Below are positions 29,026-32,640 of a stretch of 32,662 bases of DNA, in pieces; within the stretch, counting starts at the first letter, position 1, and each line of letters starts with the position of its first letter. Source of the DNA: Peduovirus P22H1; sequence record NC_049386.1. One strand, 5' to 3'. Under the pieces are notes generated by a model, which was given only the letters and a program-made list of their open reading frames with translations, did no database searches and was not told where the DNA came from. A program made the translations under genes and the position numbers.

Positions 29026-29261
29026 AAAACGTTAAAATTCAATGCAATGAAGGCATAGAGGAGGTCGCTTTAATATGTTTTATGTTTAATATTTATTAAT
29101 TGTTTATTTAATATAAAAAAATATTATATATAGGGAGATCAAATACAACGGTTTACTTGTTATGATGCAAACATTGGTTAGTTAGTGAGATACATCGCCA
29201 TCAATTGGGTAACTTTACCCGTGGAAAGTTAACGCTTTCTAACATTTACCCCGCGCAACGC

Positions 29262-29425
29262 CCCTGCCAGCGACAAGAGTCACAGGATCAGGCGGTATGG
29301 CGTATGGGTATTCGAACCCTTTGGGCGACCAAGGGTTCGTGGAGCAGGGGGCTAGTGCTGTTCAATCTCATCCTTATGAGGGCGAACCATAGTGTTGGAG
29401 CAGACATATCGTTTGCACACTATGG
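29262..29425 (+). ncRNA. Candidate structured non-coding RNA (possible retron msr-msd-like element); tentative
   Basis: GC-richer segment in an AT-rich intergenic region with nested inverted repeats: CCCCTGC (29261-29267) pairs with GCAGGGG (29344-29350); an 11-bp bulged stem at 29313-29339; a perfect 9-bp stem CCATAGTGT/ACACTATGG at 29387-29425. Confidence 0.35.
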
Positions 29426-29441
29426 GCATAAGGAGCAAATC

Positions 29442-29597
29442 ATGAAGAATGATAAATTAACCAACGAACAGCAGGCGCAGAACAAGTCAAACCTGAAAAA
29501 GTGGGCTGGTTATGTTTGGAAATTAATCAAATGGGGTATTAGACTGTTTGATTTAGCCACTCGAGCACTGGACTACTTTGAAGGGGGTGATGAGTAA
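29442..29597 (+). CDS. Small Trp-rich amphipathic peptide (51 aa), function unknown
   Basis: ATG at 29442 with Shine-Dalgarno AAGGAG six nt upstream; product contains WAGYVWKLIKWGIRLF; the longer track ORF from 29205 runs through the structured region and is probably not translated. Confidence 0.45.
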   Translation: MKNDKLTNEQQAQNKSNLKKWAGYVWKLIKWGIRLFDLATRALDYFEGGDE

Positions 29598-29621
29598 TGC
29601 GTCCTCCCTAGTTTCAATAGC

Positions 29622-29954
29622 ATGGAGTTGCCTATGTTACACAGAGCCCTTCGTTTAATAAGGCAATACCATAAAGAGTCATTGGTTGATTTATCAACAT
29701 CTTTAGGTATTCCAAAAGAAAAAATAGTAGAACTCGAAAGTGGGGTTTGGTCGCCTACAATTGATGTTTTACAGCGTTACGCCTCCCATTTCGATATGCC
29801 GGTATCTTCTTTAGTATTTTTTTCAGAATCGTTAGGTACGCAGGGGCGTTTATCTAAGCGTTTCCGTTTAAATTTAGCTGGTAAAGTATTAGATGTTATT
29901 GAGTGGGCGAATAAGAAAAATGAAAAGACGAATAAAACTCAAAATTTCCACTAA
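29622..29954 (+). CDS. XRE-family helix-turn-helix DNA-binding protein
   Basis: 110 aa; HTH pattern LRLIRQYHKESLVDLSTSLGIPKEKIVELESGVWSPTIDVLQRYASHF; directly upstream of and overlapping the RT ORF. Confidence 0.55.
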   Translation: MELPMLHRALRLIRQYHKESLVDLSTSLGIPKEKIVELESGVWSPTIDVLQRYASHFDMPVSSLVFFSESLGTQGRLSKRFRLNLAGKVLDVIEWANKKNEKTNKTQNFH

Positions 29955-30870
29955 AAATAAATCTTACGATATAATTGATTCGCCGTTTTATAAAATGAGA
30001 AGTAAAAGGAAATTGGCTTCTTTATTGGGGGTTGATGTAGGGGATTTATCAACCTTAAAAAAAGATGAAGGCAATTATTCTATTTTTGAACAGTTATCTA
30101 AAAACGGAAAGCCACGTAAGATACAAAAACCATTAGAAAAATTAGATGTGGTGCATACTCGTATTGCAAGTCTGCTATCGCGAATTACCTTGCCAGATTA
30201 TCTACATTCTGGAAAGAAGGGATGTTCTAATGTTACTAATGCTAAAATCCACCTTAATAATGAAAGGTTGATGACAACCGACATCAGGGCTTTTTTTCCA
30301 TCAACTACTAGAGAAATGATATTTTCATTCTTTTTTTCTGTTATGAAGATGTCATCTGATGTTGCGGATGTATTATCGTATATATGTACTTGCTATGGGC
30401 GTTTGCCTACAGGTAGCAGGATTAGTATGCCTCTTGCATATTTTGCAAATTCAAGAATGTTCGGAGAAATACACCAACTTTGTAATAAACTACACGTAAA
30501 TATGTCTGTTTATGTTGATGATCTAACTTTTTCAGGACAAAACGTTAATAGACTATTTTGTTCAGTGATTCGCAAAATAATAAATAAGCATGGTCATGTG
30601 ATGCATGCGGATAAAACAAAAATTTATAGTAGAGAAAAGCCTAAGTTGGTAACAGGTGTTATTGTTTTGGGCGGTTCTTTAAAAGTCAGGAATAAGCAGC
30701 ATCTTTTAATGTCTCAAGAAATTGAATATTGGAAAATGATAAAGGATGCAGCGTGTGCAAGAGAAACTCATACTGCCAAAAAGTTATTTGGACGATTGCA
30801 TTCTATGGGGGTAATTGAACAACGTTATAGATCAAAGGTGCTTACATTAAAAGCAAGTACTGCACTTTAA
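29893..30870 (+). CDS. Reverse transcriptase, retron-type
   Basis: RT motifs read directly in the translation: RKIQKP, NAKIH (NAxxH), DIRAFFPST, LPTGSRISMPLAYFAN, YVDDLTFSG (YxDD), KLVTGVIV (VTG); about 300 aa with no long C-terminal extension; alternative starts at 29920 and 29995. Confidence 0.8.
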   Translation: MLLSGRIRKMKRRIKLKISTKNKSYDIIDSPFYKMRSKRKLASLLGVDVGDLSTLKKDEGNYSIFEQLSKNGKPRKIQKPLEKLDVVHTRIASLLSRITLPDYLHSGKKGCSNVTNAKIHLNNERLMTTDIRAFFPSTTREMIFSFFFSVMKMSSDVADVLSYICTCYGRLPTGSRISMPLAYFANSRMFGEIHQLCNKLHVNMSVYVDDLTFSGQNVNRLFCSVIRKIINKHGHVMHADKTKIYSREKPKLVTGVIVLGGSLKVRNKQHLLMSQEIEYWKMIKDAACARETHTAKKLFGRLHSMGVIEQRYRSKVLTLKASTAL

Positions 30871-30978
30871 TACAGGTTCCTGTAAGTGATTATATTGTTC
30901 TTAAGATACTTACTGATGTTATTTCCCCGTAGCCTTAATTTCTGCGGGGAAGTATGGAGATATTTTGGTTATGGAATG

Positions 30979-32343
30979 CTAATTTTTTAATGTGTATTTT
31001 TCTGTGATTAGTTTCATTGTTCTTTCCAATCCTAAATATACAGTGGCATCAGTAATATTGAGCACGGCAAGTTCTTTTAAAATTTTCTTTTTGTCTCTGA
31101 TGTTTATTTTTTCTGTCTTAAAGTTGTATGGTGAATTATCTGCCTGATCGTTGGATATCTCAGGAAAAACGGCGTTATTACCGAATAATAAAAAGGCACC
31201 GGATTGAGATGATATTCTTTCATTATTTATCCTGCTTTTTACAAAAATTATCTTTTCCAAATCATCTGGATTTATTATGCTTTGAAAATATGGTTTTTCA
31301 TGCTTTATGGATTCTAAGAGTTTAAGGCAAGCATGAGAGTTGTTAAAATCATTATTTCTTTCTTCGAAAGAAAGCTTGTCTTTCATGTCTTTTGATAGCA
31401 TGCATAAATTAGATATGCAACTGACAGTGTCGGAATCGAAAAATTTAATGTTCTCTCTGTGTGTTTTAAATATTATTACTTGACCATCGATATCGTTTTT
31501 GTCGGAATTTATACTACTGCATGCAAAATAAAGTGCAATTAATGGATTTGATGTGATGTCAAGTAAGCGAGTAGGTATGCCATAATGTTGCATTCTTACA
31601 AGTTTATCAAGCATTGATGTATCATCAATGAATTCTGAGGGTCTTGCGCTCAATGCTTCTTTAACAAGGTTGATTTCATTATGTAGAAATTTATAGTTCC
31701 CATTTTCATATTTTCTGAAAAGAGATGGTGCAAGTTCATAAGATGAATCTGAATGACCCCTGTAAAAAATCTCCTCATCCATATCTGCTGTTATATGGAG
31801 AACTTTTTCAATAAATTCTTGTAAACTATTTACGGTTAATAATGTGCTATCTTCGTCTGGGAGAGGCGCTGGACTGCTATCCACTTGTGCATTTTGGTTA
31901 ATACCAAATGTCTTAAGGATATCATCTATATTTTTGTCTTTTATGGCCCAGTGTGTTCTTTTAAGGCCATAAGTTCCGAGTTCTAAACTGCTTTCAACAC
32001 TTTTGGCGTCTGATATTTTGATTTCATTGTGTGTATGGGTGATTGCAAATTGGAAGTTGATTTCTTTTCCCTTAATGTGAATATTTGAAATTCTTCCAAT
32101 TCGTATGTCGACATAATAAGGTTTTGCTCCCTCTATTTGATAAGCTTCACTCATGAATATTGTTGGGAGTTTTTCAAGATAAGATAGTACATTGCTGCTT
32201 AATGGGGATAGTTTTTTGCGAATACCATCGGAGGTGTTTTCAAACATTCGTGATAAAAGAAATGAGAATTCTCCATTATTTTGGCTGAATGGTTTCCAGT
32301 GGTCGTAGTGGTCGGGAAAACCACCCATAATTAAATTAATCAT
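30979..32343 (-). CDS. FRG-domain-like protein, function unknown (candidate defence protein)
   Basis: 454-aa AT-rich ORF convergent with the RT; central region carries FYRGHSDSSYELAPSLFR and QHYGIPTRLLDITSNPLIALYFA, which I recall as FRG-domain signatures; flanking domains unrecognised. Confidence 0.65.
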   Translation of the reverse strand: MINLIMGGFPDHYDHWKPFSQNNGEFSFLLSRMFENTSDGIRKKLSPLSSNVLSYLEKLPTIFMSEAYQIEGAKPYYVDIRIGRISNIHIKGKEINFQFAITHTHNEIKISDAKSVESSLELGTYGLKRTHWAIKDKNIDDILKTFGINQNAQVDSSPAPLPDEDSTLLTVNSLQEFIEKVLHITADMDEEIFYRGHSDSSYELAPSLFRKYENGNYKFLHNEINLVKEALSARPSEFIDDTSMLDKLVRMQHYGIPTRLLDITSNPLIALYFACSSINSDKNDIDGQVIIFKTHRENIKFFDSDTVSCISNLCMLSKDMKDKLSFEERNNDFNNSHACLKLLESIKHEKPYFQSIINPDDLEKIIFVKSRINNERISSQSGAFLLFGNNAVFPEISNDQADNSPYNFKTEKINIRDKKKILKELAVLNITDATVYLGLERTMKLITEKYTLKN

Positions 32344-32640
32344 AATTACCTGTTCATCTGATGTAGGTGTAGGAATGCTTGTTGTTTGTTATGGTAATGT
32401 TAACGCTTGTTGGTGGCAACTACTATTACTACTTGCTGTTAGAGCTAAGACATTTTTTGATTGCTTGTAATGATAGCGAGCCTTTAACTAACTGGGATTT
32501 TGAAAAAATAAATGAATTGTCAATTTCCTGAGATTTTTATTACTGCATTCATTAAGTGCATTTTTTTGCGTGTGTTAGTTGCCATGCTTTTCCATGTTTG
32601 TTACCAGTGTTGATGCGGTTACTGTGTTTTAATGCAATTG

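Follow-up and report, generated by a model that had tools for sequence, protein, structure and literature searches.

The genome of the P2-like phage Peduovirus P22H1 (NC_049386.1), analysed here as one stretch of 32,662 nucleotides (nt; the window), carries a reverse transcriptase (RT) operon on the plus strand and, facing it, a gene for a protein with an FRG domain. Both lie in an AT-rich island between gene A and cos. The question raised by this locus is whether they form one unconventional system or two systems side by side. We consider it probable that the island holds two independent anti-phage cargo modules, placed back to back through recombination at the cos-proximal hotspot of P2. The first module (29176-30870, plus strand) would be a Type VI retron and the second (30979-32343, minus strand) a stand-alone FRG protein.

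The phage genome in the window is near-complete and P2-like, with genes in the order of the P2 map; it starts inside cos and ends just before cos. Gene A of P2 corresponds to the open reading frame (ORF) at 26695-29025 (Pfam Phage_GPA, 6.9e-123). From about position 29000 to the window end the GC content is 0.31-0.40, compared to 0.52-0.58 in gene A. At ≥99% identity, the island was found in 60 of 5426 complete E. coli genomes, in each case with the replication endonuclease gene on one side and the portal gene on the other. One E. coli prophage has 100% identity to the window throughout the island, and in it GGCGAGGCGGGGAAAGCAC, the cos sequence, lies 27 nt beyond the counterpart of position 32641. 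With gene A on the left, the island thus occupies the whole gene A-cos interval (29026-32641, no strand), the tin/old hotspot; its limits are based on the drop in GC content, the genome survey and the position of cos. A preliminary description of this DNA had regarded the region as non-P2 cargo at that hotspot, and the composition and the position agree with this. The parts it had listed, a structured RNA, a 51-amino acid (aa) ORF, a helix-turn-helix (HTH) gene, an RT gene and a convergent 454-aa FRG gene, are all present.

The predicted Type VI retron

PADLOC, which had been suggested for the island in the preliminary description, assigns the RT to RT_VI (1.1e-105), the HTH protein to HTH_VI (7.2e-30) and the FRG protein to PDC-S15 (7.3e-98). 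The RT gene (29920-30870, plus strand) encodes 316 aa within a 325-aa ORF that opens at 29893. Its match to RT_VI spans 278 of the 279 profile positions, with RT_III-A as the runner-up (5e-45), and Pfam RVT_1 is matched at 1.1e-07. The protein contains the motifs NAKIH (30238-30252, aa 116), YVDD (30511-30522, aa 207) and VTG (30649-30657, aa 253; numbering of the 325-aa ORF). NAxxH, YxDD and VTG are general motifs of retron RTs. An assignment to the Abi-P2/AbiK type was considered and rejected, because no Abi-type model is found among the 25 PADLOC models listed for this RT, the best of which are all retron RTs, because the protein has only 316 aa and because a structured RNA precedes its gene.

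The HTH gene (29634-29954, plus strand) ends 35 nt into the RT gene. It encodes 106 aa from the start chosen by PGAP (29634) or 110 aa from an alternative start at 29622, and the product matches Pfam HTH_3 weakly (0.009). The protein is predicted to act as an antitoxin or regulator.

Type VI retrons were defined bioinformatically in 2020 by a clade-3 RT and a Cro/C1 HTH protein of 91-110 aa, sometimes with a small accessory protein (Mestre et al., PMC7736814). Their mechanism was dissected in 2025-26 (bioRxiv 10.1101/2025.10.22.683967; 10.64898/2026.04.27.721009). In Retron-Vpa2, a hybrid RNA (hyRNA) of ~470 nt combines the msr-msd template with the gene for a toxic small protein (SP) of 55 aa, whose ribosome-binding site (RBS) is held in stems together with the start codon. 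RT and HTH assemble with the RNA into a complex; phage recombination proteins make multicopy single-stranded DNA (msDNA) build up, and this DNA de-represses SP translation (bioRxiv 10.1101/2025.10.22.683967). In Retron-Sen3, SP and single-stranded DNA are constitutive, the HTH protein neutralises SP directly and the trigger is RecBCD inhibition (bioRxiv 10.64898/2026.04.27.721009). Retron-Eco12, a Type VI retron of E. coli, defends against lambda vir (bioRxiv 10.1101/2025.10.22.683967).

We aligned the region upstream of the HTH gene in 14 distinct variants. The sources were E. coli genomes, a Klebsiella phage and IMG/VR contigs with an invariant 26-mer in common. An intact ATG ORF of 51 codons (29442-29597, plus strand) is present in all 14, and it lies inside a structured RNA. 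We refer to its product as SP. The middle of SP is variable across the variants despite the constant length; the N-terminal half is polar and the C-terminal half hydrophobic or amphipathic. SP matches phrog_15287 (3e-39), a family without an assigned function, and is annotated by PGAP as hypothetical (WP_001754918.1). The homologues detected are confined to Enterobacterales, among them a 48-aa protein of Kosakonia. By analogy with the characterised retrons, SP is predicted to be the toxic effector.

The structured RNA candidate and the 51-aa peptide of the preliminary description belong to one transcript, the hyRNA (~29176-29648, plus strand; ends approximate), delineated from the RNAalifold consensus and the minimum free energy (MFE) fold of the window. 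The consensus of the 14 variants contains 130 pairs, and 98.3% of the alignment cells form standard pairs. Two-sided changes occur at 23 pairs, compared to 8.0 ± 1.9 in column shuffles (none of 500 as high) and to 2-6 when the partners are slid by 1-3 columns. The fold was derived from the same alignment, which makes the slid control somewhat generous; the margin is nonetheless large. Folded alone, the window sequence has an MFE of -168.9 kcal/mol (z = -5.5) and recovers most of the consensus helices. A scan of 28800-32662 against Rfam at E ≤ 1 detected no family.

The 5' arm of the hyRNA begins with two short conserved, msr-like hairpins (29206-29221 and 29222-29241, helices 4 and 5), with compensatory changes from GC to AU and from UA to CG. 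They are followed by a long hairpin (29249-29308) with conserved base helices (29249-29262 with 29294-29308). Its interior is variable and contains an indel of ~19 nt, and in every variant (55-79 nt) the region folds as a single long hairpin, with energies of -18 to -31 kcal/mol. This is the likely candidate for the msd stem-loop, the template of reverse transcription. Next comes a nearly invariant 11-bp hairpin (29313-29339, helix 9), with GGGCGA in its loop (29323-29328). A second GGGCGA is found at 29380-29385 in the riboregulator arm, and both copies are invariant in the 14 variants. The pair resembles the conserved direct repeat of Zhang et al., present once in the msd loop and once in the riboregulator.

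A long-range helix of 12 pairs (29340-29351 with 29604-29616, helix 10) encloses the whole SP gene, its 3' strand being located just past the SP stop codon. It is paired in 99.4% of cells, with G-U/A-U alternation at one pair, and corresponds to the IR1-IR2 or a1-a2-like pairing of Vpa2 and Sen3. Within this enclosure, 29356-29363 pairs with SP codons 9-11 in the consensus fold. The riboregulator arm (29371-29434) consists of an anti-Shine-Dalgarno helix (29371-29378 with 29427-29434) around a covarying hairpin (29387-29425). The anti-Shine-Dalgarno helix covers the AAGGAG of SP (29430-29435) and is also present in the MFE fold of the window; no change is seen in helix 12 across the 14 variants, and helices 13 and 14 contain 6 pairs with two-sided changes. 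A small hairpin covers the SP start codon, and the rest of the SP coding sequence forms a structured arm with compensatory changes within the reading frame. An 18-nt inverted repeat between the SP (29450-29467) and HTH (29679-29696) coding sequences, with 17 of 18 positions paired in the window, was rejected as a conserved element, since its pairing falls to 10-16 positions in other variants, with no compensation.

The RT_VI and HTH_VI scores, the RT motifs, the intact SP, the covariation of the hyRNA and a layout like that of Vpa2 and Sen3 all point to the same class. In terms of the definition of Mestre et al., the window contains an RT_VI enzyme, an upstream overlapping HTH gene (106 or 110 aa; cluster 2_1 spans 91-110 aa) and an SP gene upstream of the HTH gene. 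The RNA combines the SP coding region with an msr-msd-like arm and has a closing inverted repeat and a sequestered SP RBS, as in Type VI hyRNAs. As judged from sequence, the module on the plus strand qualifies as a complete Type VI retron with the canonical order SP-HTH-RT. It had been suggested that the gene set fits no known retron architecture, in part because the effector seemed not to be co-directional with the RT. Neither point is supported: a structured RNA, a 51-aa peptide, an HTH protein and an RT make up the Type VI architecture (PMC7736814), and the predicted effector is SP, which is encoded within the retron RNA and co-directional with the RT. The FRG gene is not needed for completeness.

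A working model can be drawn from the characterised retrons. A single promoter would drive the ~470-nt hyRNA and then HTH and RT. The 5' arm of the hyRNA would provide the msr-msd-like template, and its 3' two-thirds would hold the SP gene in a tight fold that hides the RBS of SP along with its start codon. RT, HTH and RNA would form a complex in which SP is kept harmless, by analogy with both examples. Control could be exerted by translational repression, lifted on infection by RT-made msDNA (the Vpa2 model), or by direct neutralisation of SP by HTH (the Sen3 model). SP toxicity and abortive infection would then follow from phage recombination functions or from inhibition of RecBCD, as by lambda Red/Gam. 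We lean towards a Vpa2-type translational switch because the SP RBS is hidden and the GGGCGA direct repeat is conserved. It is from this analogy that we infer msDNA synthesis, SP toxicity, the trigger and the mode of control.

The FRG protein and its N-terminal domain

The FRG gene (30979-32343, minus strand) is convergent with the RT gene and encodes 454 aa. Pfam FRG (PF08867) is matched at 2.4e-21, with a score of 76.9 bits against a cut-off of 25. The PDC-S15 match, like that of Pfam, runs along the FRG region (aa 168-451), and phrog_4962, a family without an assigned function, matches the whole protein at 1.4e-200; none of the three annotates the N-terminal domain. The sequence FYRGH (aa 193-197), which contains the (F/Y)RG motif, is invariant or nearly so in 39 homologues. 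At E ≤ 1e-5 we detected 3502 homologues; the best listed are full length with 41-66% identity, and they come from Enterobacterales, Aeromonas and Rhizobiales.

The structural model of the full protein matches two groups of folds, the PUA-like readers and proteins with the ADP-ribosyltransferase (ART) fold. The ART matches are diphtheria toxin (score 5.8), ART2.2 (5.3), Tpt1/KptA (5.2), PARP15 (5.2), the RES toxin ParT (4.6) and Rhs ART toxins. A model of the N-terminal domain (aa 1-~150; 31894-32343, minus strand) matches YTH readers of N6-methyladenosine (m6A; 7.4-5.7), the EVE-HNH enzyme VcaM4I (6.4) and ASCH (6.0), followed by McrB N-domains (5.0-5.1) and PD-T4-3, which is specific for 5-hydroxymethylcytosine (5.0). 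No ART-fold protein is matched by this N-domain model, and by elimination we would place the ART matches of the full model in the C-terminal half. The C-terminal region (aa ~168-451; 30991-31842, minus strand) can thus be described, on moderate fold evidence, as a putative ART-like fold and a predicted NAD-using effector. This agrees with Aravind's group, who described Frg as a domain of the ART superfamily and predicted it to be an anti-viral effector, possibly an NADase.

The N-terminal domain models as a PUA-like beta-barrel of the EVE/YTH/ASCH kind and is a predicted sensor. Searches of Pfam, NCBIfam and PDB sequences with profiles of the N-domain and of the whole FRG protein gave no match. 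Several of its residues are invariant and are candidates for a pocket that would bind a modified base or nucleic acid: F28, R32, E35, T37, E66, R129, H131 (nearly invariant), W132 and K135.

The profile of the N-domain retrieves ~900 representative proteins of very different lengths, in which the domain stands alone (~150-200 aa) or is fused to other domains. Among 71 representatives longer than 250 aa, the partner is a CAP12/Pycsar-type TIR in 20, FRG in 15, Abi_C in 8, TIR_2 in 6, TIR in 4, a protein kinase in 3 and SEFIR in 2; AbiJ_NTD3, Schlafen AlbA_2, a DncV-like nucleotidyltransferase and EAD2 occur once each. PADLOC labels the fusion proteins PDC-S35, PDC-S15, PDC-S66 or AbiJ. In one protein of 1355 aa (P0176), the profile matches in 17 short stretches. 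In the layout of these fusions, the FRG domain occupies the position of the TIR NADases. That a single N-terminal module is combined with effectors that replace one another, NAD-consuming or active in abortive infection, suggests that it is a swappable sensor. As far as our searches show, the PUA-like assignment and the fusion network are absent from the annotation in Pfam, PADLOC and NCBIfam.

In the mechanism that we propose, the PUA-like N-domain would probably bind a phage-derived nucleic acid or a modified base and then switch on the C-terminal ART-fold FRG domain. This domain would use up NAD+ or ADP-ribosylate a target, and the infected cell would be stopped. NADase activity is inferred, as is phage protection by either module. 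As a tentative generalization, which may well prove wrong, FRG proteins of this kind could by themselves form a class of single-chain abortive-infection systems, in which an EVE/YTH-like reader senses phage nucleic acid and fires an ART-fold NADase. The FRG gene is the less understood half of the island and belongs to a large family. The exchange of its PUA-like N-domain among TIR, FRG, Abi_C and kinase partners provides a hypothesis that is cheap to test, in which a sensor of nucleic acid or of modified bases is linked to an effector that consumes NAD.

One system or two

The distributions of the two modules are independent and favour the alternative, considered from the start, of two systems side by side. 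The retron lineage is present in 99-100 complete E. coli genomes, and this FRG gene only in the 60 that carry the ≥99% identical variant. FRG is missing from 13 of the 14 retron variants, including the closest one (84% nt identity). Comparison of the same slot in other prophages, which the preliminary description had proposed, shows that the other P2-borne variants carry unrelated genes after RT. In the 84% identical variant (O157:H7 and others) and in that of the Klebsiella phage ST147-VIM1phi7.1, RT is followed by a gene of 143-145 aa, and in a 78% variant by a gene of 266 aa. When the P2-borne variants are compared with each other, their nucleotide sequences are homologous as far as the RT stop codon (30870-30874) and no further. 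From the side of FRG, 55 loci with relatives of the gene were found in IMG/VR. RT or HTH is present in 6 of them, all near-identical to the window, and all 49 diverged loci are without a retron. FRG homologues are also found on an Enterobacter chromosome and in non-P2 coliphages. The composite is ordinary hotspot mosaicism.

A copy of the retron outside a P2 prophage is located in E. coli C5 (NZ_CP010122.1, 3959-7184), between yeiP and a recombinase gene. Its RT has 62% aa identity and its RNA the same invariant core. It adjoins a convergent 465-aa gene that carries no annotation; this gene was compared with FRG and with the 465-aa neighbour of the FRG gene in Klebsiella, and neither relation was found. 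That neighbour belongs to Klebsiella P2-like prophages (4432-7377), where an FRG homologue (58% identity) occupies a second P2 hotspot among the tail genes (gpU-tail fibre) and is paired co-directionally with an unannotated protein of 439-465 aa without a family match. In the E. coli P2-like prophages L011 and L012 (7772-10068), an FRG homologue (48% identity) is found in the gpA-portal hotspot without a retron. Its companions there are a DUF3850/ASCH protein of 150-151 aa, which is also PUA-like, and two genes without annotation (198 and 243 aa). None of the alternative neighbours of the retron has a match in PADLOC or Pfam.

Several points weigh against our reading of the island. A P2-like prophage of Kosakonia sp. 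SOY2 (JAPVXH010000007.1, 7487-10929) contains gpA, SP, HTH, RT, a convergent FRG gene and the portal gene in this order. Its RT, HTH, SP and FRG proteins are 78%, 80%, 75% and 64% identical to those of the window, and the nt identity is 79% for the retron and 70% for FRG. An extra gene of 144 aa lies between FRG and portal; apart from this locus, we found no second instance of the pairing. As to the retron, the outer helices of the hyRNA (29176-29201 with 29622-29648) have RNAalifold support with a few compensatory changes; they are uncertain and do not appear in the MFE fold of the window. The two characterised Type VI retrons differ in mechanism, so that transfer to the window is uncertain. 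For FRG proteins, a literature search retrieved no published functional test.

The Kosakonia locus bears most directly on the suggestion that the island is one integrated system, with FRG as a second effector or sensor of the retron that would read msDNA or hybrid RNA through its PUA-like domain. The same arrangement recurs there with clearly diverged sequences, the closest FRG subclade (63-67% identity) has five members, with the window and Kosakonia among them, and PUA-like domains bind nucleic acids. However, the three other members of that subclade have no retron, the spacer between RT and FRG is unalignable between E. coli and Kosakonia, and a Type VI retron already owns an effector. Together with the absence of FRG from 13 retron variants, the closest among them, and of the retron from the 49 diverged FRG loci, this makes a single system highly unlikely. 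We read the pairing in Kosakonia as island ancestry shared within one P2 sub-lineage, which accounts for the recurrence, or as a second chance juxtaposition. A functional partnership, in which the PUA-like domain would read a product or state of the retron (msDNA or 2'-5' branched RNA-DNA) or FRG would share the trigger of the retron, is likewise very improbable. If true, it would add an NAD-directed second layer on top of the SP toxin.

Two further explanations concern the function of one module. FRG could be a phage moron outside defence, active in counter-defence against NAD/ADP-ribose signalling, in lysogenic conversion or as a selfish, toxin-like addiction gene. We regard this as unlikely given that the gene lies in a hotspot where many tested cargo genes proved defensive (Rousset et al., bioRxiv 10.1101/2021.01.21.427644), that elsewhere its N-domain is joined instead to TIR, Abi_C/AbiJ and CBASS-type domains, typical effectors of abortive infection, and that Aravind's group predicted an anti-viral role for Frg. 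The retron, in turn, might be a decayed or silent remnant; Type VI retrons yield no detectable msDNA under standard conditions, so that a simple readout is lacking. Yet none of its three ORFs is disrupted and the RT retains the catalytic YVDD, compensatory changes preserve the RNA structure, SP keeps its 51 codons throughout the alignment and the island is conserved at ≥99% in 60 genomes, which leaves a non-functional retron extremely improbable.

The hotspot and comparison with known systems

The interval between gpA and gpQ beside cos is a hotspot for cargo, which contains old and tin in the reference P2, and retrons are listed among its contents (Rousset et al., bioRxiv 10.1101/2021.01.21.427644). 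A retron in the slot of Old and Tin is the placement expected from that work.

Some features of the island flank the two modules. The segment from the gene A stop to the start of the conserved retron RNA (29026-29175) is very AT-rich and poorly conserved among the variants. It contains short palindromes (29081-29100 with 29113-29132, and 29014-29027 with 29107-29120) and may be the home of a promoter or operator. The hyRNA promoter can be guessed from a conserved TTGTTA...TAGTTA upstream. A promoter and terminator scan of the island gave counts equal to the shuffled expectation and is hence uninformative. Between the convergent stop codons, a hairpin (ttccccg ... cggggaa, 30923-30951, no strand) was noticed by eye. 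It is a possible bidirectional terminator, an assignment that is weak and for which the terminator scan gave no call. The region from the start of the FRG gene to the cos-proximal end (32344-32641, no strand) shows no resemblance to its counterpart in other P2-like prophages. A promoter-like site on its minus strand (32419-32391) is suggestive at most.

Both window ends contain remnants of the Illumina Nextera adapter or mosaic end, at 1-31 (gtcggcagcgtcagatgtgtataagagacag) and 32642-32662 (ctgtctcttatacacatctgac). The true phage sequence is 32-32641; it begins within the 19-nt cos overhang and stops 27 nt short of cos. Many complete E. coli chromosomes that carry the prophage (e.g. NZ_CP043406.1, NZ_CP145668.1 and NZ_AP041107.1; island at 2290-5905) are rotated such that base 1 is the start of prophage gene A. 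Presumably, the start-gene routine of an assembler mistook the phage replication gene for the start gene of the replicon. In strain WP7-S17-ESBL-01 (NZ_AP022173.1, 7869-10170), a copy of ISEc12 (IS21 family, istB frameshifted) has inserted immediately beyond cos, so that it separates the island from the portal gene.

The FRG protein can be compared to two groups of defence proteins. Modification-dependent (type IV) restriction enzymes with EVE, YTH, ASCH or SRA readers, such as VcaM4I, the McrB N-domain and PD-T4-3, resemble it in the reader domain, with a sequence identity of only 5-11%, and carry a nuclease effector in place of the predicted ART-fold FRG. The single-chain sensor-TIR and AbiJ-type proteins (PDC-S35, PDC-S66 and AbiJ) have the N-domain family in common with the FRG protein but end in another effector (TIR, Abi_C, kinase and others).

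Type VI is the least typical kind of retron, with a toxin gene inside the retron RNA and two characterised examples that follow opposite control logics. The retron in the window shares with Vpa2 and Eco12 the order of a structured RNA with SP, HTH and RT, a three-arm hyRNA of ~470 nt and a 3' inverted repeat that anneals to the msr-msd arm; this likeness is taken from published descriptions. Like Eco12, it is found in E. coli. Its SP (51 aa) is similar to that of Vpa2 (55 aa) in size, position and hydrophobic C-terminal half, again by description. Where Vpa2 has the catalytic motif YADD, this retron has YVDD, and the location in the cos-proximal hotspot of P2-like phages sets it apart from both. 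Retron-Sen3, of the cl2075 lineage, has the same SP-HTH-RT order, an RBS in the basal stem and a variable internal segment of a long stem-loop. It is constitutively armed under post-translational control, and its SP is longer, at 79 aa, and has both an extension at the N terminus and an amphipathic helix at the C terminus. Judged by SP size alone, the retron described here probably lies outside cl2075, cl2760 and cl3272, whose SPs have 75-79 aa. It is a natural member in a P2-like prophage of E. coli, present in ~1-2% of complete genomes, and is known in 14 variants that show clear covariation. The question of which control logic is general could conveniently be asked with it in its native host.

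As a precedent for an RT in this slot, the preliminary description had named the RT of P2-EC30 reported by Odegrip. The location is indeed the same hotspot, but the enzyme belongs to the Abi-P2/AbiK class and is not a retron RT (PMC9508834). Abi-P2 blocks other phages and, like the gene in the window, is an RT-like gene of the P2 hotspot. It is an AbiK-like, protein-primed, template-independent polymerase without non-coding RNA, SP or HTH (PMC9508834), in contrast to the RT_VI of the window.

Old and Tin of P2 occupy the same gene A-cos slot and are likewise prophage-borne exclusion cargo; neither gene is in the window, and they have no kinship in sequence or fold to the genes there. Old is an ATPase-nuclease of the OLD family, and Tin targets gp32 of T-even phages. 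P2 Old excludes lambda and is lethal in recB or recC hosts. This exclusion and recBC-linked lethality resemble the triggering through lambda Red/Gam and RecBCD reported for Type VI retrons. The slot of Old can hold a retron family whose characterised members answer to the same lambda Red/RecBCD axis.

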